IMG/VR virus record: IMGVR_UViG_3300020213_000028
Origin: an uncultured virus (IMG/VR IMGVR_UViG_3300020213_000028)
Lineage: Duplodnaviria; Heunggongvirae; Uroviricota; Caudoviricetes
DNA: 20,000 nucleotides
Strand: one strand, 5' to 3'
A model generated the notes under the pieces. That model was not told the origin of the DNA. It worked only from the letters and a program-made list of their open reading frames with translations, and made no database searches. Both the position numbers and the translations under genes were made by a program. Of the stretch, positions 5,036 to 20,000 are shown in pieces (positions within the stretch are counted from its first letter, which is position 1; each line of letters opens with the position of its first letter).

Positions 5036-5039
5036 GAGG

Positions 5040-6185
5040 TCACCGCTTCCGGTTCGTCGTACCGAGTTCTAGGTGCGCGGAACTGATCTTGAAATCGTTC
5101 CCGTTCACATTGCTGAACTCGAAGCCGTAATACACAGAGTTGAACCCGCGCCCGAGCTGCGCGCGGTTGTTCTTCGCCTGCTCGGCGGTGGACAGATGCG
5201 TCGGGTAGATGAACTCGCCCTGCGCGCTCTTCACAGTCACGTTGATCTTGCCGTCGCTGGTGCCGGAGAGGATCATTCCATCCAGCACCTTGTTGTGTGG
5301 GTCGCCGAAATCCATGAGGCCGGTCATCACGCGCGCGTCGATGTCTCCGCCGGCGTCGGTGTCACCGGTGTCGATAATGTAGAGGCCGGCGTCGCCCACG
5401 CCGAGCAGGTACTCGCCGTGCTGCGCCAGCGAATTGAACGGGTACGCCGGAAAGCGCGCGCCGGCGGTCGTCTCGGTATTCATCCACAGCGCCGCGCCGG
5501 TGAGGTCCTCGACGAAGAAGTCGAAAGCCACACCGCGCGAAATGAGGTTCTGCGTAGCCACGAGGTGCTGCGCGGCTGCGTCTGTGGCGGCGGCGCGCTC
5601 AGTCACGTTGAGCGTCGGCGAGAACACGATCGCGACGGTGTCGGTGGCGTCGCCCGAAGAACTCAGTACTTCGTACGCGGCGAGGCCCGCGACGACGGCG
5701 TCGGTCGCCGCGGCGGTGGAACTTAGGTCGTTGGTGAATGAGATCTCGACCGCGTCGGTCGCAGCGGCGGTGCTGGTAAAAGCCGAGGTGAGCTCGATGC
5801 TGAGGGCGTCGGTGGCGTTCGCCGTCTCAGCGAGGGGCGTCTCCGCTGTCCCCACCAAGGTGTCGGTGGCGGCCGCCGTCTCGGCCACAACGGCTGTAAC
5901 CTGCTGCGTTACAGCATCCGAGGCCTGAGCGCGCTCTACCAGGTTCTCGGAAGTAATAACGTGTGCCGTTACTACTTCGGAGACGACCGCCGCCGCCGAG
6001 AGATTATGTAGGTGCTCCCCGACGAGCTCGTCCGTAGCCGCGCCCTCTGACGACAGGGCGAGAGCGACCGCAACGACAATAGCGCTCAGCGCGTTGGCGG
6101 TGTCACTCAGGGGCGAGTCAAGTTGGAACGCCAGGGCGTCGGTCGAAGCTCCACTTGACTCGAGTAGCTCACACGGATCCGGCAT
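5040..6185 (-). CDS. Putative tail structural protein, 381 aa: ~12 acidic L-x-[SE]-x-A-x-A-T-D repeats plus a C-terminal globular domain
   Basis: AGGAG RBS before ATG at 6185. Repeats are visible by eye. The C-terminal WMNTET..YPFNS..GLY..TGLMDFG region resembles the end of podovirus tail tube/stabilisation-type proteins (recalled resemblance, not searched). Confidence 0.65.
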   Translation of the reverse strand: MPDPCELLESSGASTDALAFQLDSPLSDTANALSAIVVAVALALSSEGAATDELVGEHLHNLSAAAVVSEVVTAHVITSENLVERAQASDAVTQQVTAVVAETAAATDTLVGTAETPLAETANATDALSIELTSAFTSTAAATDAVEISFTNDLSSTAAATDAVVAGLAAYEVLSSSGDATDTVAIVFSPTLNVTERAAATDAAAQHLVATQNLISRGVAFDFFVEDLTGAALWMNTETTAGARFPAYPFNSLAQHGEYLLGVGDAGLYIIDTGDTDAGGDIDARVMTGLMDFGDPHNKVLDGMILSGTSDGKINVTVKSAQGEFIYPTHLSTAEQAKNNRAQLGRGFNSVYYGFEFSNVNGNDFKISSAHLELGTTNRKR

Positions 6186-6209
6186 TAGTCCGCTCCTGCT
6201 CAGCCGGCG

Positions 6210-6229
6210 CCGCGGGAGTTACCCCGCGG
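6210..6229. other. Intergenic GC-rich hairpin without a U-tract
   Basis: ccgcggg (6210-6216) pairs with cccgcgg (6223-6229) around a 6-nt loop, inside the 58-nt gap between the 201-aa and 381-aa genes. Confidence 0.55.
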
Positions 6230-6243
6230 TTGTGCCGTGATCA

Positions 6244-6849
6244 TTAGGTCGAAGTCAGCGAGACCGTGTAGCCGATATTGAACAGATCGGCGTCGCTCAG
6301 CGAGCGCGCAGTGGCGAAGCGCGTGGCGGAGAACAGGACGCCGGTCGTGCCGCCGCGCACCGACGAGGACAGCAGGCCCACGCCGTTGACGGTGAGCGTC
6401 GTCGCCGTGACGATCGTGAACACGGCCTTGGAGGCGGTGTTGTTGATCGACGCCGCGGCAGCCGTGCTGTCTACGAATTCCTGGCGGGTCGCCTCGCTGT
6501 GGCCCTCGGTGAGGGACGTGATCTCGGAGGCGTTCGCCGTGAAGTTCGCAGCGGTCCAGGTGTTCACCGGGGAGATCGCGCCGGCGTACAGGGCGAGATA
6601 GAAGTTCGCGTATTTCGCCGTCGCGCCCAGGTACACGGCGAGCAGGCTGGTGAGCCCCTCGGTCGTCAGCAGGTTCGTGTCGGACTGCGGGTCGAGGCCG
6701 TTGACGTCGTGCTCGTACACGCCGCGAGCGACCATCTTGGAGGCCGGGAAGTACAGGCCGCCGTCGTCAGTCTGCTCGAACTTTAGATTGGAAAGGTCCC
6801 GAAGGAACTCGGGGGCGTGGTCGCGCAGGTCCTGAGTCAGGTTCAGCAT
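6244..6849 (-). CDS. Putative virion structural protein, 201 aa
   Basis: AAGGA RBS. NLLTTEG...FYLALY...WTAANF..ASEI pattern with a beta-rich C-terminus, typical of small phage tail/fibre subunits. Confidence 0.7.
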   Translation of the reverse strand: MLNLTQDLRDHAPEFLRDLSNLKFEQTDDGGLYFPASKMVARGVYEHDVNGLDPQSDTNLLTTEGLTSLLAVYLGATAKYANFYLALYAGAISPVNTWTAANFTANASEITSLTEGHSEATRQEFVDSTAAAASINNTASKAVFTIVTATTLTVNGVGLLSSSVRGGTTGVLFSATRFATARSLSDADLFNIGYTVSLTST

Positions 6850-10202: not shown

Positions 10203-11200
10203 TTTGTCACCTCGGCTGTGCCGAATTGGCTGGTGTCGCCGATCGTTGGGTAGGCGATCTGCCAGCGGTTACACGCGTACTCGAGGGAGACGATCGGCTC
10301 GCCGAACTCCAGCGGCGCGATGCCGGCCGGGTTGATCGACGGGCTCGCCGACGCGGCGCCGAGCGCGGCTGAATCCCAGCCGCTGGGTTCCACGCTGCGG
10401 ATCTTGAACGCGACGAACGCAGTACCAGGTTCGTAGCTGTCAAACCCGGGGGCGTCGATGCTTCGTACGAGGTACTCGGTACGAGGTACGCCGAACTCGG
10501 CGGTGTCAAAGCCCGTCGCGCTGAGGGGGCGGTCGAGGAACCACACCGTGTGCGAGCCAAACTCCAGGTGGTCGTAGTCACCCATGCGGAGAGTGAGGGG
10601 CGCGTGGGCAACGCCGGGGCGCCCGCCAAACGGGGAGGCCGGCAGGCCGCCTACAAATACGCGCGAAGAATCCCAGCCAGTCGGCGTGATCGGCCGGTGA
10701 AGATGGCTGATGAACACTCCGCCGAAGCTCAGCCAGTCTGTCCCAGGGGCAACATCGACAGCGCCGTAGTGCCGGACTTTGTGTGCCCCGAACGCTACGC
10801 CGTCGAGCGCGACCGGGTAAATCGGACGGTTGAACAGCTCGACGGAAGTCGTGCCGAATATGCTCGCCGAGAGACCTACCGGGTAGACCTCTCGGTTCTT
10901 CTTCGTTACGGCTGTCGCGCCGAAGAACAGCGCCTGGATGCCGTTCGGGGCGATCCCTTGCGCAGCATTGGCGACGGTCGTGGCGCCGAACTGCAGTGAG
11001 TCAATGCCGGCGATGTCAAGCAAGTGCGCGATCGCGACGGAGCCGAATTGCAGAGAGTCGATCGCTGTCGGCAAGACATTCTGAGCGGCGGCCGCTACCG
11101 CCTCAGGGAACACCCCGACGAGCATCCGGCCGTCGTGCGTGGGGATGGCCGTGACAAAATTGAAGGCGGCTAACGCGCCGTTCGGCGGCGTGTAGCTCAC
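10199..11200 (-). CDS. Putative fibre/scaffold protein, 333 aa, ~13 x ~22-aa P-x-G-x-D-x-x-x-F-G repeats
   Basis: GTGA overlap start. Repeat examples: PTAIDSLQFG, IAGIDSLQFG, ATGFDTAEFG, PSGWDSAALG, TIGDTSQFG. Confidence 0.75.
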   Translation of the reverse strand: MSYTPPNGALAAFNFVTAIPTHDGRMLVGVFPEAVAAAAQNVLPTAIDSLQFGSVAIAHLLDIAGIDSLQFGATTVANAAQGIAPNGIQALFFGATAVTKKNREVYPVGLSASIFGTTSVELFNRPIYPVALDGVAFGAHKVRHYGAVDVAPGTDWLSFGGVFISHLHRPITPTGWDSSRVFVGGLPASPFGGRPGVAHAPLTLRMGDYDHLEFGSHTVWFLDRPLSATGFDTAEFGVPRTEYLVRSIDAPGFDSYEPGTAFVAFKIRSVEPSGWDSAALGAASASPSINPAGIAPLEFGEPIVSLEYACNRWQIAYPTIGDTSQFGTAEVTN

Positions 11201-11496
11201 AGGTATCCCACCTCAGGGTCCCCGAACGCCACGGCATCGCTGCCCGACGGGGCGACATCTCGGGCGAGCGAGGCGACGGCCGTGACCGGGTCCCAGATCA
11301 CCGCGTTGCCGAGACCGGATGGGTTATGCGCGATGATGGTGTAGGCGTCGTCGGTAATGAGTGCCGAGAACACAAACAGCCCCGCGGACGTAACGACCTC
11401 CTCTTCGAGCGAGCCATCATCCACGCGGTGCGCGCGGACAGTCGCGCCGCCCACCGCAGCACCTGCGTACGAGAGGTAGCCGGCAATATAGGTCAC
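11197..11496 (-). CDS. Small Ig-like / carboxypeptidase-regulatory-like protein, 99 aa; paralogue of the N-terminus of the 322-aa protein
   Basis: Start reassigned to GTG at 11496 (GTGA overlap with the upstream stop). VTYIAGYLSYAG..VRAHRVDDGSL aligns with MGYVAGSVKVAG..ARAYRLDDGTL. Confidence 0.75.
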   Translation of the reverse strand: MTYIAGYLSYAGAAVGGATVRAHRVDDGSLEEEVVTSAGLFVFSALITDDAYTIIAHNPSGLGNAVIWDPVTAVASLARDVAPSGSDAVAFGDPEVGYL

Positions 11497-12461
11497 AGCC
11501 AGGCCCTTGGCGTGTAGGCAGCCCCCTGATATTTGTCGAGCCCGACCAACAAGCGCGTCTGCGCTATGGATGTGTCTGGGGACTGAAGCCCGGCAAGCGT
11601 GTAGAAGGAGTAAGCGTCCGGCCCGAAGTAGAGCTCGTCGCACTGAAAGTCGGTCGTGTCTGCGACGCTACCGAGAAGCTCTCCTTCAAGAAAGAGCTGC
11701 ACCCCTTCGAGGGTCGTCGTGTTGTTACGAGTCATCGCGACCCGGAGTACTGTGTCAAGGTAGGGCTGGCACAAAAAGGTGTCGACGTACGGCCCTATCG
11801 ACCGGAAGATAGAAATGGTGGAATTGTCGAAATCTACGTACACTTGAAACCCGTCTGTGGTTACTGAGTCTGCGAGCGTGAACAGCAGCACCGGGCTCCC
11901 CGCAGAGTAGGTGCCGCTCGAGACAGTGAACATAGTTTCAAACGTGAAGTCCCCAGTACCGACGATGAGCTCCGTAGCTCCCGTCAGCGAGATAACGGCG
12001 TCGGCAGGGAGCTCGGCGACGGGCACCAAGTCGTCGTTCGGAAAGCCCCAGCGATTGCCGAAAACGGTCGTCGCCCCCACCGGCGTCCCGCCGCCGGCCG
12101 AGTTCGTGAAGTCAGTCTCGTAATTGAGGCGCAGTACTTCGTAGGACTCGTGATCCACGAAGCTGATCTCGTGGGCGCCGAGTCGCTGTGACTCCGCAGG
12201 GACTGCGAGCAGCGAGCGATTGAGCGTAGCGACCGCTGCCACCGAGTCGTAGACGATCGCGTTGTAGTTGGTGCCGCCAGCGAGGTCATGCGCCACCACG
12301 GTATACAAATCCCCGGTGGTGAGCGTTGACATAACGAACAAGCCGGTGCTATCCGTCGACGCCTCCTCTCCGAGAGTGCCGTCGTCGAGTCGATAGGCCC
12401 GCGCGAGAACCCCGAACGTCGGCACCCCAGCCACCTTCACCGATCCGGCGACGTAACCCAT
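11493..12461 (-). CDS. Putative tail fibre / receptor-binding protein, 322 aa: Ig-like N-terminal domain plus LamG/concanavalin A-like domain
   Basis: GTGDFTFETMF, RVAMTRN...QLFLEG, ELYFG and terminal Y...YTP motifs are typical of LamG-like jelly-roll domains in phage tail proteins. Confidence 0.7.
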   Translation of the reverse strand: MGYVAGSVKVAGVPTFGVLARAYRLDDGTLGEEASTDSTGLFVMSTLTTGDLYTVVAHDLAGGTNYNAIVYDSVAAVATLNRSLLAVPAESQRLGAHEISFVDHESYEVLRLNYETDFTNSAGGGTPVGATTVFGNRWGFPNDDLVPVAELPADAVISLTGATELIVGTGDFTFETMFTVSSGTYSAGSPVLLFTLADSVTTDGFQVYVDFDNSTISIFRSIGPYVDTFLCQPYLDTVLRVAMTRNNTTTLEGVQLFLEGELLGSVADTTDFQCDELYFGPDAYSFYTLAGLQSPDTSIAQTRLLVGLDKYQGAAYTPRAWL

Positions 12462-12889: not shown

Positions 12890-13420
12890 TCAGAGAGATA
12901 GTGCGAGTTTCGCCCGCGCCAGCAGCGCGCGGCGGTCGACGATGCCATTCAATCCGCCGTTGATCCTGCGGGTCACGCCCTCGAAGTCGCCCTTGTCAGC
13001 GAGCGCGCTCAAGCCCTTCCAGTTCCAAAACTCGACAGCAGACCGCGCTGCGTACTCCGGCTCGCACAGCCGCTCGGGGTTGTCGAGCAGCGTGCGTTCA
13101 GTGCCGAAGATCACCTTCGACATCTTGGCGTGGTTGGCGCGGCCGGTGATCTGGAAGATGCCGTGGCCCTTGTACTTCCTGCCGTCGCCCGGCTCGGTGT
13201 TGCCGAGGTCCTTGCGCCCTTCGTAGGCCTCGCCGCTGGCGAGCTCCGAGAGCCATTGGAAGCCTCCAGTCTCGTGCGCCGCCTGGGGGAGGAACATCTC
13301 CATGCGCTGGCGCGTGTCGATCTCGCCCGCGGCCATGGCCTGTACCAACGGCTCGTAGATCGCCGCGATCGCCGGTCGCTTGCTGTTGCAGATCGCCTGC
13401 AGTTGGAGGAGGGAGAACAT
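12890..13420 (-). CDS. Endolysin, glycoside hydrolase family 19 (chitinase class I-like), 176 aa
   Basis: Q-x-A-HETGGF, YEGRKDLGN..PGDG..YKG.G..QITGRAN, A..SA..FW and VTRRINGGLNG..DR are GH19 phage endolysin motifs. Confidence 0.93.
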   Translation of the reverse strand: MFSLLQLQAICNSKRPAIAAIYEPLVQAMAAGEIDTRQRMEMFLPQAAHETGGFQWLSELASGEAYEGRKDLGNTEPGDGRKYKGHGIFQITGRANHAKMSKVIFGTERTLLDNPERLCEPEYAARSAVEFWNWKGLSALADKGDFEGVTRRINGGLNGIVDRRALLARAKLALSL

Positions 13421-13836
13421 CAGCTTCCTTTGATGTGGTCACGCAGCCACTGCACGTCGATGCGGAGGCCTGCGACTTGTTCTTTCAGCGCGTGCACCTC
13501 TGCGGTGAGGCTCGCGATCTGGCGATCGGACTCGCTCAGTTTCGCCACCGCGGCGTCACGTTCGTCAGTCATCTTGGTGATCGCCACAACGCAGTCGTCC
13601 TGGATCCGGTCAGCCCGCGCGCGCTCGGCGTCGGCGCGGTCGGCGTACTTCCGGGCCTCGGCCTGCAGCGTACCGACGACGTCGGTCTCCGCGCGGTCCT
13701 TGGTCGTCTCGACTTTGTCGCGCGAGAGCATGCGCCACACGTAGCGGGCGAGGAACGTCGCGCCGAGCGTGAGCCCGGTCGACACCACGACGGGGTTGTT
13801 GGCAACAACCCCGGAGATCTCGGTGACTTCGCTCAC
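13420..13836 (-). CDS. Single-TM plus coiled-coil lysis-cassette protein (holin candidate), 138 aa
   Basis: Start reassigned to GTG at 13836 (GTGA overlap). Hydrophobic VVVSTGLTLGATFLARYVW followed by heptad-rich sequence. Stop overlaps the endolysin ATG (TGATG). Confidence 0.65.
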   Translation of the reverse strand: MSEVTEISGVVANNPVVVSTGLTLGATFLARYVWRMLSRDKVETTKDRAETDVVGTLQAEARKYADRADAERARADRIQDDCVVAITKMTDERDAAVAKLSESDRQIASLTAEVHALKEQVAGLRIDVQWLRDHIKGS

Positions 13837-14270
13837 GGGCCCGTCCAGCCGTCGTTGATTGCGGTGCGGAGCAAAACCCAGAAGGCGAAGCCGGCGACGA
13901 TCACCACCCCGGCGGGGGCGGGCAGCGAAGTGCCGAAGGTCATAGCGTAGGCGGGCGCCGCGTAGAGTACGAAACCCAGCGCGTTGACCGCGACGCCGAC
14001 GCGGGGCCGGCGCCACCGCTCATACACGCGCCACAGGCCTAGCACGCCGTAGACTGTGAACGCCGCGGCCCACGCGGCGGCGGGGGCGATGTCGTTCATG
14101 AGCTTATAGACCGGGGTGCCCAGCGCGTCGGGGACGGCGCGCAGCTTGTAGACCCAGACGAAGGCGCCTGCGGCCAGGCCGAACCGGACTGGCGCGGTGC
14201 TGCTGCCCCACAGAAGCTCTATGGTGTCGCGCCAGATCTCGCGCAGGCGGTAGTGAAGATCGAGGTTCAC
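13833..14270 (-). CDS. Multi-pass (~4 TM) membrane protein, holin/antiholin candidate, 145 aa
   Basis: Start reassigned to GTG at 14270 (GTGA overlap). Four hydrophobic segments: FGLAAGAFVWVY, AAAWAAAFTVYGVLGLW, VGVAVNALGFVLYAAPAYAM, AGVVIVAGFAFWVLL. Confidence 0.7.
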   Translation of the reverse strand: MNLDLHYRLREIWRDTIELLWGSSTAPVRFGLAAGAFVWVYKLRAVPDALGTPVYKLMNDIAPAAAWAAAFTVYGVLGLWRVYERWRRPRVGVAVNALGFVLYAAPAYAMTFGTSLPAPAGVVIVAGFAFWVLLRTAINDGWTGP

Positions 14271-14449
14271 TTGAGCTTTACGCAGTTGAGCTTGAACGGC
14301 TCGCTGAACTCTTTCGCTACCGCCTTGGCCGACACCTTGAGCTGCGCCTCGCACGCGGCCCGGCTCTCATACACCGTGGGAGTGCCGCTAGGGCCGTAAC
14401 CATAGCCGACGGTGGGGTTGGACAGCAGTACCAGGATGAGCACGAACAT
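14267..14449 (-). CDS. Small exported/membrane protein with two Cys, 60 aa
   Basis: ATG at 14449 with AGAGG RBS. MFVLILVLL N-terminus, YESRAAC and LNCVK. Confidence 0.65.
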   Translation of the reverse strand: MFVLILVLLSNPTVGYGYGPSGTPTVYESRAACEAQLKVSAKAVAKEFSEPFKLNCVKLK

Positions 14450-14459
14450 GGCAGACCTC

Positions 14460-14711
14460 TTAGGGTTGGGTGCTGATGTATTCGATGGCCGAGTCAAGGC
14501 GGTCAGCGCAGTCGTGGTGCTTGCGCGCGTTCTCGATCGTCATGCGGTCGTACTCCGCCTGTTTCGGGGACGTCGGCGGCTGTGGGCGCTCGCACGGCTG
14601 CAGCAGCTCCGCCGGCGTCGCGCGGGCCACGGGGGATCGCGTCGGTGAGGATGCGCAGGCGCTCAGCATCAAGATCGCAAGCGTCAGCAAAACTAGGTGG
14701 GTTGGTCGCAC
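14460..14711 (-). CDS. Rz1: Outer-membrane spanin lipoprotein (o-spanin), 83 aa
   Basis: Signal peptide with lipobox LSA-C and a Pro-rich mature region (PAELLQPCERPQPP). Starts inside the upstream i-spanin gene in another frame and extends past its stop. Confidence 0.88.
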   Translation of the reverse strand: MRPTHLVLLTLAILMLSACASSPTRSPVARATPAELLQPCERPQPPTSPKQAEYDRMTIENARKHHDCADRLDSAIEYISTQP

Positions 14712-14991
14712 GGTGGGCCTCGAGTTGTTGGAGAGCGGTTTCCGCGGCCTGGCGGGAGGCCCTAGCCTTGGCGAGCTGGCGCTTCACCAGGGCCTGGTCT
14801 TTTGCGAACTGCGCGTACGCCAGATCGGTGGCCTCGTTGAAGCCCTCGATCTGCGCTGCGTGCGCGGCGGCCGCCACGGCTTCGGCTTTGCCGGAGTGGC
14901 CCTTGAACCAGCCCACCCCGCCCATGACGGCAGCGACGATGAGGGCGATCAGGTAGGTCGCCGGGTTAAACGCGGCCGTGAGAAAACCCAT
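14503..14991 (-). CDS. Rz: Inner-membrane spanin (i-spanin)
   Basis: ATG at 14991 (TAATG overlap). N-terminal TM (YLIALIVAAVMGGVGWF), Ala-rich coiled coil, one Cys (ADACDL). Overlaps the lipoprotein gene. Confidence 0.85.
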   Translation of the reverse strand: MGFLTAAFNPATYLIALIVAAVMGGVGWFKGHSGKAEAVAAAAHAAQIEGFNEATDLAYAQFAKDQALVKRQLAKARASRQAAETALQQLEAHRATNPPSFADACDLDAERLRILTDAIPRGPRDAGGAAAAVRAPTAADVPETGGVRPHDDRERAQAPRLR

Positions 14992-15179
14992 TAGATGCAC
15001 CCGCTCTTAAGTCGTACTCGGTTTAGCTCTAACTTTAGAGCCTCGTTTTCTTGAAGCAATTCATTGACATACATGATTATACTCTGGCGCTCTGCCAGAG
15101 TGACGAGAGTGTAACCCTCCCCCACAACAAAAAACAAAACCACCAAAACAAAAATCAAAAACGCAGCTGTCTGTTTCAT
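14991..15179 (-). CDS. Small TM plus coiled-coil protein, 62 aa, AT-rich
   Basis: Coupled to both neighbours (ATGA and TAATG overlaps). FLIFVLVVLFFVV TM followed by LLQENEALKLEL. About 42% GC by hand count over 15001-15180. Confidence 0.6.
   Translation of the reverse strand: MKQTAAFLIFVLVVLFFVVGEGYTLVTLAERQSIIMYVNELLQENEALKLELNRVRLKSGCI
15076..15101 (-). promoter_or_regulatory. Candidate internal promoter -10 (TATAAT) abutting an 8-bp inverted repeat
   Basis: Minus-strand TATAAT at 15081-15076. actctggc (15081-15088) pairs with gccagagt (15094-15101). Only a weak -35 (TCGTCA, 19-nt spacer). Confidence 0.3.
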
Positions 15180-17974
15180 ACAATGTCCGATCGCGTCGAG
15201 GGCTGGACAACGTCGGCGCGAGCCTGCGCCGTTACTACGGTGCTACGAACCGGGGCGGTCGAAATGTCAGTACGGCGTTCCTGGTACGAGGCACTTCGTA
15301 CGTCGTACCGAGTGGGCAGAACCAGCGTGCCTACAAGGCCTTGGGTGAAGAACGCCTGCACCGCCAAGGCAGCGCGCCGCGCCACGCCGATGAGCTTCGA
15401 CACTGAGGCGCCGAGGGTGGACCCCGCCGACCTCGAAAGGTCGATCGCCCTAGCTACCAACGGTGCGTTGAGGGCTGATGAAGCGAGAACCTTCGAAACA
15501 CGCCTCGCCGCGGAAGCTGACGTAGCGGCCGTCGCGAGCAGCGCCAGCGCGTAGGCCCGAGCTGTGGTTACGGCGGCGCTGGTCGCCACCGATGCCGACA
15601 GCGTGCGGAGGAGAGCGCGTCCACTCTGGACGGAAGCCACCGCGGCGGCAGATGGGGACTTCACGACCTGCACCACGCGCGCTACAAGGGCCGATGCAGT
15701 TTTCGTCGCGACCCTCGTCGCGTAGACCGCCTTGCCCACCACCGCGCTGGTCGTTTTTGACGCCGCCCTCGATAGAGCGCTGGAGCGCGCGACAGCGGCG
15801 GCCGAGGCCAGCGCTGCCGATAGGACGAGCAGCAGCACCTTCAGGCTCGATACGGTTGCAACGGTGGCGGTGGTGGCGGCCAGGGTCAGAAGGTTGACGA
15901 CGCCACGCAGGAGGCTGGCGACCACGGTTGCGCTGGTGGCGCGCGAGGCCTGCACCACCCGCGATAAGAACGCGACCGGGGTCGACGTTGCCGTGGCGGT
16001 GTAGCTGGCCCCGGAGAGACGGACGACCGTAGCCACGATCGCGGTGGCCGCGGACTTGGTAGCGCTGGTGAGGCGCGCCCCGGAGGCCGCCGCCGAGCTT
16101 GATGCGCTGAGGACTGAGTCGAAGGCGCGGACCATGGACGGAACGGCGCCGGCTGGCGCCGACTTCAACAACAAGACCGCCTTCGCTATGGAGGCCGCTG
16201 GAGATGATGTTGCCAGGGCGGTGTAGCTGGCCCCGGAGAGACGGACGACCGTAGCCACAACAGCGGAAGCGGCGGCCTTGGTGGTGCTCATGAAGCGAAT
16301 GACGACAGAGGACGCCGCCGTCGTGGCGGCCCGTGCGGCGCCCACAGCACGAACCACGGCCGGCGTCACCGCCTTCGCCCCCGCCTTCGTTGTCGCGATC
16401 GAGCGCGCCATTGAACCGGCCAAAGAAGCGGACACAGACTTGGCAGAGACAGTCGACCGCAGCAGGGTCGCGGCGGCCGCTACAGACGCGGCGATCACGA
16501 CGGAGAGAGCTCTCGCAACGGTCGCTGAGCCGGACAAAGACGCGGACACGGACTTGAAGACGGCGCGGGTAGCGATAGCCGCGACCGCCGTGGTGGCCGA
16601 CAGGGCCAGCAGGTAAGCGCGCGAGGAAGACACGGTTGCGAGCGCAGCGGCCGCCGCGGACTTGGTAGCGGACGCGGCCTTGGTTGCCGATGCGCCGGCA
16701 GTGTGCTGTGCGCTCTTCACCGCGCCGACCGCGCGGACGAAGGCCGCGGACACCGCAGAACCCACAGCCCTGATGGCGAGAGTGGCGCGGGACAGAAGGA
16801 CGGCCGTGACGACGGCCGCCGACAACGTCATATAAGTTACCGTCTCGGCGACTGGCGTGTAATCAACCATCGCCCAAAGTGCGGACGACCTAATCTTATA
16901 CGTGCCCGCCGCAGTTAATTTGATGCCGATCTGCATCGCGTCCAGCTTGCTCGTTGACCACGCCGCACCATCGGGGTCAAGGTCTGCTGTGATTGGGTAC
17001 GGATTCAATGCCGTTGTACTCGGGCCGTTAGTCACCCACGTTGTTTTGTTATGGATCGTCGCGGTGGATGCCGTCACCGTCCCGCTCGCCTCTTTCTTCA
17101 GGCGCAATTGATACGCGGTAAGTCCGTCGCCAGTATCGTTAGCAATCCGGCAGCCGACATGCACTACACTGACAGTGTCGCTCGCGCCGATGCCAGACGC
17201 ACCGCAGTTGTAATCGTCAATCTGATTCAGAGTCAGCGACTCGACATAATCTGTGGCATCGTTCGGCGTCACCTCGTCCTGCTGTGACCAGTTCGCACCG
17301 CTGTCGGAACCGCCGCGCGTCCAGTCCGCGTTGTCACCCGTCGCATTAGGGCGCAGGCAAATGACCTTGCCCATCCCGGTCCAGGAATTGTTGTTACTCC
17401 CGCTCGTCGTGTTGACGGCAACGTCATCAATGTAATAGTCGTGGGTGACCGCTGCGCCCGTGCCGAACGCTAGAGTTCGTGGATCGGCGCCGTTGGTATT
17501 CTGACCCGTCACCGAAACGACCGATGATCCATCCAGCTTTACGTCAATCGTGCCCGTGCTCGCATGGCTTAGTACCTTAAACTCGAAGCAATACCAGGTG
17601 CCAGTCGTTAGCGCGATATCCGATCCGACTTGTGTATTCGGACCGTTCATGACCTTGAGCCCGGCCCCGGTCCCTCGGAACCGCATCAGGATCGTAGTGC
17701 CGGCGCTATCGGCGACGTATGACACTAACGTATTATTCGCCGGAAGCGTCGTTGCGTAGTACCAGAATCGTCCGTAGATAGTCTTATCGGTATTGGTCCC
17801 CAGAGAAATCGTTACATTCTGCACCGACGACGATGGATTGTTGCGATATGAATACGCCCCGGTATTTTTTGTCGTGCTGTTGATGCTGCCAGTAGGCGTT
17901 GACCCGACGAAGAAAAATTCCTTGTTCCCTGTCAGATCGTTAAGCTCAAACCCAGTCGTCAGTAATCGGGCCAT
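15176..17974 (-). CDS. Putative fibre protein, 932 aa: N-terminal LamG/ConA-like region (~375 aa) plus ~27 basic Ala/Ser/Thr/Val repeats of 18-20 aa
   Basis: IYGRFWYY, TGTWYCFEFKV..IDVKLDG and YYIDDVAVN are jelly-roll motifs. The repeat region starts near 16830. ATG directly abuts the upstream TAA. Confidence 0.75.
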   Translation of the reverse strand: MARLLTTGFELNDLTGNKEFFFVGSTPTGSINSTTKNTGAYSYRNNPSSSVQNVTISLGTNTDKTIYGRFWYYATTLPANNTLVSYVADSAGTTILMRFRGTGAGLKVMNGPNTQVGSDIALTTGTWYCFEFKVLSHASTGTIDVKLDGSSVVSVTGQNTNGADPRTLAFGTGAAVTHDYYIDDVAVNTTSGSNNNSWTGMGKVICLRPNATGDNADWTRGGSDSGANWSQQDEVTPNDATDYVESLTLNQIDDYNCGASGIGASDTVSVVHVGCRIANDTGDGLTAYQLRLKKEASGTVTASTATIHNKTTWVTNGPSTTALNPYPITADLDPDGAAWSTSKLDAMQIGIKLTAAGTYKIRSSALWAMVDYTPVAETVTYMTLSAAVVTAVLLSRATLAIRAVGSAVSAAFVRAVGAVKSAQHTAGASATKAASATKSAAAAALATVSSSRAYLLALSATTAVAAIATRAVFKSVSASLSGSATVARALSVVIAASVAAAATLLRSTVSAKSVSASLAGSMARSIATTKAGAKAVTPAVVRAVGAARAATTAASSVVIRFMSTTKAAASAVVATVVRLSGASYTALATSSPAASIAKAVLLLKSAPAGAVPSMVRAFDSVLSASSSAAASGARLTSATKSAATAIVATVVRLSGASYTATATSTPVAFLSRVVQASRATSATVVASLLRGVVNLLTLAATTATVATVSSLKVLLLVLSAALASAAAVARSSALSRAASKTTSAVVGKAVYATRVATKTASALVARVVQVVKSPSAAAVASVQSGRALLRTLSASVATSAAVTTARAYALALLATAATSASAARRVSKVLASSALNAPLVARAIDLSRSAGSTLGASVSKLIGVARRAALAVQAFFTQGLVGTLVLPTRYDVRSASYQERRTDISTAPVRSTVVTAQARADVVQPSTRSDIV
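15995..16258. repeat. Exact 42-bp direct repeat (15995-16036 and 16217-16258), 222 nt apart
   Basis: ggcggtgtagctggccccggagagacggacgaccgtagccac occurs twice and encodes VATVVRLSGASYTA. Confidence 0.9.
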
Positions 17975-19078
17975 TTACGCGGCCTCGTAGCAATTGATGT
18001 GCGTTTGCTGCTTGCCGAACACGCCACCAGCTAGGACTACGCGCCCATCATCAAGCGAGCAGATAGCGTTGCCGAGGAACGAATCGGGCAAAGGCTGCGC
18101 GTCGATCATCCACTTGTTCAGCGCGGGGTCGTAGACTAGCAACGCGTGTACTTTTCCATCCGGCCCGGTCGTTACCGGCCATACAACTTTGCCGTGCGAT
18201 TGCGCGATGCGTATTTCGATCAGCCTGACCAGCGCGCCATCAATCGGCGGTGTCGCCAATTCTTCGGTCGTATGTGCGTCGAGATGCCAGCGAAACATCA
18301 TCGGCACTTTGCTTGCGCCATCCGTGCGATAGCCGACGACGTAAACGTAGCGGCCGATCTTGACGTACTTGCCTTGCGCAAAGTAAGCCGCGATAAAATT
18401 GGCATCCCTCTTAATTGTGAGCGTCAAGTCGGGCAAGCGAGTGCCGAGATTTACGTCCCACCGCCGACATGCAAATCCGCCCGACGAATCCGCAAATGCA
18501 ACGATGTGCCCGTTGACCTCGTCAAAAGCACCGCCGTACAGACATCCTGTGTGCGTATGGTCTCCGCCAAAAAGTCGATTGTCCTGCGCACATTTGTTGG
18601 TCATGGGATCAATCCACCAAATGCCGCGCGCGTAGGCAATGACGGGATCGCCAGCCGCTTCATACCAATAATACGATCCAGGCCAAGCAATGAATTGCTT
18701 CCGCTTGACGACCCAGTCGAAGCCGGCGCCATCCTGCAAAGCGTGCGGCGCGGGCCGATAATCTTCGCCGAACTCCTGCCGCCAATCCGACAAATTGTCG
18801 AGCGGCGCACTCCACATGCCATCAGTTGCCGAGTGCGCCCAATCACCGCCGATGACGTACAGGCGATTGCCATCAGTCGCCATGTTGGTGTGCTTGCTGC
18901 TGCCATTCGCCGAATACGGCGCAAGTTTTCCAAGCGCCGGAAGTAAAGACGACGTGATCGTTCCGATCGCGCTGCCCGGAGGCTTTGGCGGCGGCACGAC
19001 AACGGGCGGCGGTGGCGTAATCGAGTTAAGGCGACCCCCAAGATAATCGCCACACTTCCGTCCCCGGGCCGCCACCAT
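17975..19078 (-). CDS. Kelch-like beta-propeller protein/domain; start uncertain, possibly the +1 frameshift extension of the upstream gene
   Basis: GNRLYVIGGDW, GRYVYVVG, LLVYDPALNKW and GRVVLAGG kelch-like blades. The credible sequence begins with the linker ITPPPPVVVPPPKPPG. Confidence 0.65.
   Translation of the reverse strand: MVAARGRKCGDYLGGRLNSITPPPPVVVPPPKPPGSAIGTITSSLLPALGKLAPYSANGSSKHTNMATDGNRLYVIGGDWAHSATDGMWSAPLDNLSDWRQEFGEDYRPAPHALQDGAGFDWVVKRKQFIAWPGSYYWYEAAGDPVIAYARGIWWIDPMTNKCAQDNRLFGGDHTHTGCLYGGAFDEVNGHIVAFADSSGGFACRRWDVNLGTRLPDLTLTIKRDANFIAAYFAQGKYVKIGRYVYVVGYRTDGASKVPMMFRWHLDAHTTEELATPPIDGALVRLIEIRIAQSHGKVVWPVTTGPDGKVHALLVYDPALNKWMIDAQPLPDSFLGNAICSLDDGRVVLAGGVFGKQQTHINCYEAA
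19025..19040 (-). other. Candidate programmed +1 ribosomal frameshift site (prfB-like)
   Basis: In-frame TGG GGG TCG CCT TAA C compared with prfB AGG GGG TAT CTT TGA C. The +1 frame continues for about 350 codons. Confidence 0.4.
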
Positions 19079-20000
19079 CAACTGTCAGCAGCGCACTAGT
19101 CCCGTCGGACAACAGATTAGATGCAGACATTACCACCGCGCGCGGCACTACATTTCCAGCAGCGAGCGATGGGCCTTTGCTCCATACCTTTGTCGTCAGA
19201 TTCAGAAACCATGTTGCTTGCCGCACCACGCCCGACCCTGCGGCGACCATGCCGGTACGCCCGCACCACGCAACGACGACATCCTGCCCCTCGACCAGCG
19301 TGGCGACAATACCAAGCGTGTCCGGCTTGTCGCCTGTCGTTGTCTGCATCGTCCACGCGCCATCGCCCGGCGGATGCGTCCAAAGCTGATTATCGTTGGC
19401 CAGCGTCCACAGCGTACCGTCGCGCGCATCGATGCCGCTGCGAGCGTAAGTCAATCGCGGCGATTCTTCTTCAGCGCCGCCATAGGATGGTTGCCGCGTC
19501 CACAGCGGAGACGCACCTGTGATATTGGCGATCACGCCGCTCATTAGATCGCGTTTGCGCAACGCCTGCGATCCAGACCATCCGCCGAAAGAGTAAAGGG
19601 CGCCTTGCCAGTACGCGTAGCACGCATCGCCAGCGCCCTGCCCCGGCGAATATGGCTGCGTATACTCCGCGCTCGCAAGAGCAAATTTTAGATCGCCAGT
19701 TTGGCTGTAGGCAACCGGGGCGCCAGCGCCGATCCACACACACGCGCGATCAGTGTCGTAGCACGCGCCATAATTCTCGCGCGCGCCGATGTCATATCCG
19801 ATACCCGACGACGCTGACGTTTTGGTCCATAGCCCGGTCGCGGCTGACCACGTAAACGATCCGTGTTGGGCACTCTGTGCGTTGCTGCCCCACGCCGCCC
19901 ACAGTCCGCCTGGGATCACTACCGGACGCCGAAAGTAGGCGCCAAACATCCCGCCGTTGCCAACGTCAACGCGCGCCCACGTAGCGACGCCGGTCGTCTG
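19026..20000 (-). CDS. Kelch-like beta-propeller protein (5' end beyond the right edge)
   Basis: The frame is open from 20000 (QTTGVATWARVDVGNGGMFGAY...). GALYSFGGW, WFLNLTTKVWSKGP and GAWTMQTTTGDKP resemble kelch blades. Confidence 0.7.
   Translation of the reverse strand, partial: QTTGVATWARVDVGNGGMFGAYFRRPVVIPGGLWAAWGSNAQSAQHGSFTWSAATGLWTKTSASSGIGYDIGARENYGACYDTDRACVWIGAGAPVAYSQTGDLKFALASAEYTQPYSPGQGAGDACYAYWQGALYSFGGWSGSQALRKRDLMSGVIANITGASPLWTRQPSYGGAEEESPRLTYARSGIDARDGTLWTLANDNQLWTHPPGDGAWTMQTTTGDKPDTLGIVATLVEGQDVVVAWCGRTGMVAAGSGVVRQATWFLNLTTKVWSKGPSLAAGNVVPRAVVMSASNLLSDGTSALLTVDGGGPGTEVWRLSWGSP

Follow-up and report, generated by a model that had tools for sequence, protein, structure and literature searches.

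On the minus strand of a 20,000-nucleotide (nt) stretch of DNA from the uncultured virus IMGVR_UViG_3300020213_000028 (Caudoviricetes), referred to here as the window, two open reading frames (ORFs) that are both modelled as Kelch-type propellers meet at a site resembling the frameshift signal of the release factor 2 (RF2) gene, prfB. The analysis points to a Shine–Dalgarno (SD)-stimulated, stop-codon-dependent +1 ribosomal frameshift of the RF2 type, through which the upstream ORF (ORF1) would give a short product and, by extension into the downstream ORF (ORF2), a long one. A probability of about 0.8 is attached to this reading.

The candidate frameshift site and its conservation

The minus strand from 19040 to 19025 reads TGG GGG TCG CCT TAA C, exactly as the original prediction had it, and the prfB-like layout recognised there is borne out in each of its parts: a G-rich run, a 3-nt spacer, a C-N-U codon followed by U, a stop codon and a C. 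Published passages on prfB give its motif as AGGGGG, a 3-nt spacing, CTTT, a stop that is TGA in > 99% of cases and otherwise TAA, and then C, and passages of Atkins 2016 place the stimulatory SD sequence of +1 shifts 3 nt from the shift codon. The pattern GGGGGNNNCYTTRAC has a single match in the window against 0.01 expected, and a match was obtained in one of 200 shuffles. When CCTT is read as a single step, translation runs on into ...EVWRLSWGSPNSITPPPPVVVPPPKPPGS..., the fusion junction that had been predicted.

In the mechanism proposed by analogy with prfB, the final sense codon, CCU in the window and CUU in relatives, would carry the peptidyl-tRNA while the A site of the ribosome is presented with UAA-C or UGA-C, a stop that terminates poorly. 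Three nt upstream, GGGGG(U) would pair with the 16S rRNA at its 3′ end, and at the short spacing this would destabilise the pairing in the P site. A fraction of ribosomes would then move forward by one base, re-pairing from CYU to YUU, and continue with AAC or GAC as the next codon. Termination would give the short product, consisting of one complete propeller, and the slip would give the long product, consisting of propeller 1, a Pro-rich linker and propeller 2, with the junction peptide LSWGSPNSITPPPPVVVPPPK. As termination at UGA or UAA would compete with the slip, the ratio of long to short product should depend on host RF2 and, for UAA, on release factor 1 (RF1) too.

The sequence TGG GGG TCN CYT TRA C was found at the ORF1/ORF2 junction in eight contigs that represent four lineages. 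Among the 42 loci examined, 22, which are cuts of these eight contigs, contain exactly one match to the pattern, and the match always lies at the junction. The window group (the window, L002 and L016–L019, at 96–100% protein identity) has TGG GGG TCG CCT followed by TAA or TGA and then C; L004 (59/55% protein identity) has TGG GGG TCA CTT TGA C; L008 (54%) has TGG GGG TCG CTT TGA C; and L009/L010 (53/51%) have TGG GGG TCG CCT TGA C. The exact prfB core, CTT TGA C, is present in L004 and L008. The stop is TAA C in the window, L016 and L017, and TGA C in every other of the eight contigs. Conservation of the stop and of GGGGG in homologous phage genes, which the original prediction had proposed to examine, is thus observed, with an invariant GGGGG and a stop that is only ever TAA or TGA in the four lineages with DNA. 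A fifth lineage is represented by proteins only. P0165, which is 42% identical to ORF1, ends ...ALQWGSL, and P0204 reads ...CSGGRFDDPEEP; the two were paired as one lineage on the length of the longest contig listed for them, 49148 in both cases, and overlaying them forces TGG GGG TCG CTT TGA Y, as deduced from the protein pair. A scan of viral contigs with TGGGGGTCNCYTTGACGACCC returned only the four contigs already known.

The last 30 codons of ORF1 contain nine codons at which the residue is conserved and a synonymous choice exists, and by our reading eight of the nine vary among the four lineages. Only the GGG within the SD-like run does not vary, although this codon accounts for no more than 17.5–21% of the Gly codons of these genes. 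As the final sense codon, some lineages have Pro (CCT) and others Leu (CTT), yet C-Y-T and the T after it are kept, which points to selection on the nucleotides and not on the residue; CCT accounts for 30 of the 301 Pro codons (10%) in the window ORFs.

The same run of G residues could in principle act at the level of transcription. In transcriptional slippage, RNA polymerase would drop one G of GGGGG and bring the two ORFs into frame with the junction ...SWGRLNSIT...; the loss of one G yields the same downstream frame, and the run is invariant. However, the conserved C-Y-T, stop and C exactly 3 nt downstream would be left unexplained, and no variation in run length is seen among the DNA contigs. 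Moreover, known bacterial slippage sites are long runs of A or T, and a 5-nt G run forms a stable hybrid, which also counts against slippage. This explanation is considered highly improbable.

A similar picture would result from an error in sequencing or assembly, or from a 1-nt insertion that recently inactivated a former single ORF, and this had been raised as a caveat to the original prediction. Relatives with a single ORF do exist, and frame errors do occur in Pro-rich linkers, for example in L028, a contig from a metagenome-assembled genome (MAG), where there are two at C-homopolymers. Against this, the two-frame layout is present in eight contigs of separate assemblies and in four further sequencing runs with no 1-nt indel, and it is kept across lineages down to 53% identity with the stop varying between TAA and TGA only. 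The window's own contig appears to be L016, which matches it at 100% identity. Three further near-identical assemblies (L017, L018 and L019/L002) keep the layout; the stop is TAA in L016 and L017 and TGA in L018 and L019. Contigs from the four other runs, covering 18700–19400, have no 1-nt indel, with in-frame 18-nt and 3-nt indels elsewhere, and the TAA/TGA polymorphism (19027 T>C on the plus strand) is seen in three of the four. A single continuous ORF, which had been named beforehand as the observation that would speak against a frameshift, was found neither in the three near-identical assemblies nor in the four runs.

The pattern of substitution among close relatives was also informative. 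Upstream of the overlap, the ratio of synonymous to non-synonymous differences is 54:14 in frame 0 and 7:61 in the +1 frame, and downstream of the site it is 39:19 in the +1 frame and 9:49 in frame 0. Within the 56-nt overlap, each of the three variants either is silent or preserves the stop in frame 0, whereas in the +1 frame all of them are non-synonymous. These counts indicate that the frame under selection changes at the site and that each ORF is under purifying selection in its own frame, which likewise argues against error or decay. The caveat has been dropped, and an artefact or a fresh mutation is now given almost no credence.

Table 1. Junction elements and flanking reading frames, with positions in the window.
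Feature	Position	Strand	Remarks
ORF1, modelled as first Kelch-type propeller	19026..20000	-	5′ end cut by the window/contig end; ends ...TEVWRLSWGSP, then TAA
+1-frame stretch open upstream of the site, overlapping ORF1	19029..19081	-	Holds TTG, ATG and GTG
SD-like GGGGG (from TGG GGG)	19035..19039	-	3 nt upstream of the shift codon; invariant in 8 contigs/4 lineages
3-nt spacer TCG (Ser)	19032..19034	-	Would occupy the E site with the shift codon in the P site; spacing as in prfB
Proposed shift codon CCT (Pro), next base T of the stop (CCT_T)	19029..19031	-	From sequence; relatives have CTT_T
ORF1 stop TAA	19026..19028	-	Polymorphic with TGA in the natural population
C right after the stop	19025	-	prfB weak-termination context; C in all 4 lineages with DNA
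ORF2, +1 frame relative to ORF1	17975-19081	-	350 codons from the site onward; reads ...LGGRLNSITPPPPVVVPPPKPPG...
Pro-rich linker NSITPPPPVVVPPPKPPGSAIG, +1 frame	18962..19027	-	Proposed to be readable only after the shift; model residues 1–20, mean predicted local distance difference test score (pLDDT) 54
Second modelled Kelch-type propeller, +1 frame, stop included	17975..18961	-	Model and Foldseek

Start codons of ORF2 and points against a frameshift

The layout could also reflect two separate overlapping genes, with ORF2 translated from a start of its own at 19081–19075 or by re-initiation with GGGGG as the SD sequence, and with the likeness to prfB a by-product of the residues W-G-S. It had been claimed that ORF2 has no convincing start, and this holds only in part: TTG at 19081, ATG at 19078 and GTG at 19075 do exist, but none of the three has an SD-like 4-mer upstream. 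Such a 4-mer lies 5–10 nt upstream in 8 of the 15 mechanically listed ORF starts of the window, whose own genes use SD sequences of the GAGG/AGGA type. Starts in the +1 frame are likewise available in L009 (TTG ATG) and in L004, where TTG TTG is all that is present upstream of the site; the TTG ATG of the window and L009 is a by-product of conserved V-D residues in frame 0. Two separate genes would also be in keeping with the existence of split relatives that have an independent ORF2 (L022, L024, P0169, P0176, P0178, P0186 and P0191) and with the statement, in passages of Atkins 2016, that in coupled phage genes an SD sequence is often found close to a gene end.

Several observations argue in the other direction. 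In L008, a TGA closes the +1 frame four codons ahead of the site and the first ATG, GTG or TTG lies 28 codons past it, while the Pro-rich linker, starting at the site, is open and looks like coding sequence. No ATG, GTG or TTG in the +1 frame occurs within the 7–10 codons read after GGGGG in any of the four lineages, so the G run cannot be the SD sequence of a coupled start. The lineages share no ORF2 start position, and gene callers chose non-homologous positions; the current ORF2 gene calls, with their arbitrary starts inside or after the linker, are probably wrong. Two of the three overlap variants lie upstream of the stop, and both are synonymous changes in frame 0 but non-synonymous ones in the +1 frame. 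In addition, the N-terminal peptide and the NTGA overlap of the split forms are absent from the frameshift lineages, and a W-G-S by-product does not account for the C after the stop, for GGG being invariant or for a C-Y-T codon that is Pro in some lineages and Leu in others. The +1-frame stretch upstream of the site is probably not translated in that frame, and two independently translated genes are regarded as unlikely.

A number of points weigh against a frameshift nevertheless. The window and L009/L010 use CCU_U and not CUU_U, which according to passages of Atkins 2016 far outperformed in efficiency the others among 32 shift codons assayed at the RF2 site, and the efficiency of shifting on CCU_U may be low. 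The TAA stop of the window is also read by RF1. The lineages share ancestry, so that the conservation counts are not fully independent. Independent initiation is physically possible in the window, L004 and L009, which have a TTG or ATG of the +1 frame 17–19 codons upstream of the site, and the split relatives show that propeller 2 can work as a separate protein. As CUU_U is the best codon, the combination of CCU_U and TAA in the window may shift less than the CTT TGA C of L004 and L008.

Re-pairing of the tRNA at the shift codon had been a further concern, since a CCU-to-CUU shift needs a G:U pair. That need is real, but it is shared by the canonical CUU-to-UUU shift, which requires a G:U pair at the first position (passages of Atkins 2016). 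In a count of base pairs, each of the two shifts needs one G:U pair outside the wobble position, at the first position for CUU and at the second position for CCU.

Modelled propellers and their fused and split relatives

The window protein was folded as two separate parts with AlphaFold on alignments of its relatives; CCTT read as a single step also hits a second in-frame CCTT, at residue 636, which spoils the fused C terminus. ORF2 from the site onward, comprising the linker and then ~330 residues, gave a pLDDT of 88.7 and a predicted template modelling (pTM) score of 0.88. The full-length ORF1 homologue of L002 (358 amino acids (aa), 98–99% identical) gave a pLDDT of 81.8 and a pTM of 0.83. 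In a Foldseek search of the Protein Data Bank (PDB), the top matches of both models were Kelch domains and specifier proteins, with E values of 7e-11 to 1e-10 and template modelling (TM) scores of 0.5–0.66. Large phages supplied further matches of the ORF2 model, namely predicted Kelch-like proteins that in some cases carry the annotation virion structural protein. At the level of sequence, Pfam Kelch repeats were matched only below threshold (PF24681 at 26.6 bits, cut-off 50; PF13964 at 24.1, cut-off 25.3), and a sequence search of solved structures gave weak Kelch matches only, the best with E 0.0025. Both ORFs model as six-bladed Kelch-type propellers, and the claim that two propeller ORFs meet at the junction is upheld by the confident models and their structural matches.

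The last propeller strand, TEVWRLS, occupies residues 348–354 of 358 in the L002 ORF1 model. Given this strand end and the low pLDDT of the linker, the ORF1 stop would lie four residues past a complete domain and ORF2 would open with a flexible linker; that the opening is rich in Pro, as had been noted before, is read directly from the +1 frame. Strains differ by an 18-nt in-frame insertion at 18986, which adds one more PPPVVV unit to this linker, and by a 3-nt in-frame insertion in ORF1 at 19106. The N termini of ORF1 homologues (L002:2893-3000; P0155-P0165) begin either with a helix-like MSTKAQVV.. or with a strand-like MTVTVYAPGLTVEV.., followed by poly-Pro and the propeller; the N-terminal peptide is possibly a virion-attachment module. 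P0162 is among the relatives that have an extra domain inserted near this peptide.

Next, the arrangement of the two domains in relatives was considered. Among ORF2 relatives with E ≤ 1e-30, 16 of 27 representatives are 675–976 aa long and match in their C-terminal part, and in 8 of 21 further loci the ORF2 frame stays open for at least 421 codons upstream. L015 has a single ORF of 776 aa, in which residues 71–324 of ORF1 align to 117–409, ending GSP, and residues 22–349 of the +1 product align to 412–775. The fusion junction that had been predicted for the window is therefore the homologous residue junction in natural single-ORF relatives. In L015, the junction DNA is GGA GGT TCG CCG CAT, with neither the G run nor the stop.

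The split relatives are organised differently. In L022 and L024, ORF2 is separate, lies in the −1 frame and begins at a TTGA or GTGA start-stop overlap (L022:2400-2470, L024:60-130); GGGGG is missing from L022, and the site pattern finds no match in L024. Before the linker, ORF2 of these two has N-terminal peptides of its own (MTTRAVIVIRRP.. and MTRAVIVIRKP..), with MT(T)RAVIVIR[RK]P conserved. P0169, P0176, P0178, P0186 and P0191 are split in the same manner, and their peptides resemble the N termini of ORF1 homologues such as MTVTVYAPGLTVEV... No such N-terminal peptide is present on ORF2 of the frameshift lineages, which fits attachment of propeller 2 through ORF1. The DNA at the L022 stop (CCT TGA CGA C) still resembles the frameshift site.

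A quick tree with Shimodaira–Hasegawa-like approximate likelihood ratio test (SH-aLRT) support was built from 39 of 41 candidate rows, P0015 and L025 being left out with < 250 residues aligned. On this tree the frameshift lineages do not form one clade, L022 groups with L004 and L024 (support 99), and the frameshift label needs two or three changes. A single origin of the frameshift arrangement is neither shown nor excluded by the quick tree. As the frameshift lineages are not one clade, the fused, frameshifted and split arrangements appear to have interconverted. The MAG contig L028 (2330-2480) was considered as a related site and rejected, as its two frame changes at C-homopolymers in the poly-Pro linker look like an assembly error.

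Known frameshift systems and the gene neighbourhood

Compared with passages on prfB, the phage site is alike in its SD-like G run, the 3-nt spacing, the C-N-U codon before the U of the stop, the UGA or UAA stop and the following C. The CUU consensus is found in L004 and L008 and, by deduction, in P0165/P0204, whereas the window, L009 and L010 have CCU. The phage G run begins with U and that of prfB with A. The prfB shift takes place at codon 26, and the short product there is a short peptide that undergoes degradation; the phage site ends a complete domain of 350 aa, and the short product would be a complete propeller domain, as judged from the model. Since the ORFs encode predicted propellers and not RF2, the phage site has no autoregulatory loop and is not a prfB gene.

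Phages that add C-terminal domains by a +1 shift at a Pro codon and stop, to which the original prediction had appealed, are on record. Passages on the tsh gene of Listeria phages PSA, A118 and A500 describe a +1 shift at CCC_UGA, and those on gp17.1* of Bacillus phage SPP1 describe CCC_UAA and a 3:1 ratio. As far as these passages go, the present site, if it shifts, would be alike in using the last sense codon before a stop and in giving a long form with a folded C-terminal extension beside a short form, and it is alike in its position in a phage structural gene region. Its layout and the natural fused relatives fit this type. However, at the PSA and SPP1 sites CCC re-pairs perfectly on CCU, which does not apply to the CCU or CUU of the phage site, and the passages mention no SD-like stimulator, whereas the phage site has a conserved GGGGG 3 nt upstream. 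Tail assembly chaperones of the lambda G/GT type and the capsid extensions of T7 (10A/10B) and T3 would share with it, according to passages on these systems, two products with a common N terminus, a fixed ratio and overlapping structural ORFs. They differ in shifting in the −1 direction, on heptanucleotide slippery sites and often with a downstream structure. In the window, a fold of 19060–18940 gave no support for a downstream stimulatory RNA structure (z = 0.08, with 96 of 200 shuffles folding at least equally well).

Passages of the PRFect paper state that programmed +1 frameshifts are rare in bacteria and phages, with no general motif recognised, and that every CUU-stop +1 frameshift in RECODE belongs to prfB. 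A literature search, whose coverage left out most subscription journals, found no report of an RF2-type cassette outside prfB, nor anything relevant on frameshifting in Kelch-type virion proteins of phages. We lean, if only slightly, towards the view that this phage family took over the complete RF2 cassette and that the ratio of one-propeller to two-propeller product is set by host termination, that is, by RF2 activity and growth state. Should the frameshift be real, it would be the first case in nature of a prfB-type, SD-stimulated +1 frameshift in a gene other than prfB, and virion composition would be linked to the termination capacity of the host. Finding the cassette conserved in a phage gene unrelated to prfB would mark the RF2 signal as a portable module and would supply annotation tools with a concrete +1 search motif. 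With the two domains occurring fused, frameshifted and split, the family would also form a natural series on the use of a fixed ratio of short to long product.

The phage origin of the window DNA, also part of the original prediction, agrees with both the PHROG matches and the gene context: the PHROG families matched in the window include an endolysin, holin-like and spanin-like genes and a head-closure protein, among others. A blastn search of 17900–20000 against phage records returned no match. The phage occurs in mats, and no RNA run is listed among the 11 sequencing runs that contain the stretch. In L002, a 96–99% relative, the gene order is scaffold, major head protein, two small genes, the propeller pair and a phrog_14065 gene, and in L008 and L015 the gene after the propeller pair matches a minor tail protein family. 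With low confidence, this gene context suggests that the propeller gene product is a virion-associated fibre or decoration protein.

Further genes of the minus strand were noted in passing. The ORF at 15176-17974 encodes a 932-aa protein whose N-terminal ~460 aa match phrog_14065, of unknown function, and whose remaining ~470 aa are low-complexity, repeat-like and rich in Ala, Ser, Thr and Val; the homologous region in L002 consists of two ORFs (5039-6244 and from 6241 onward). Within 11197-12461, the ORFs at 11493-12461 and 11197-11643 share ~150 nt in the mechanical listing, and both match the N-terminal part of phrog_37978, one of them with a weak CarboxypepD_reg match; they may be tandem paralogues or the product of a mis-set start. 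Finally, a lysis cassette lies amid the structural genes at 12890-15000, with an endolysin that is GH19-like (phrog_181, E 7.5e-55) next to a holin-like ORF and an ORF weakly resembling an Rz-like spanin.

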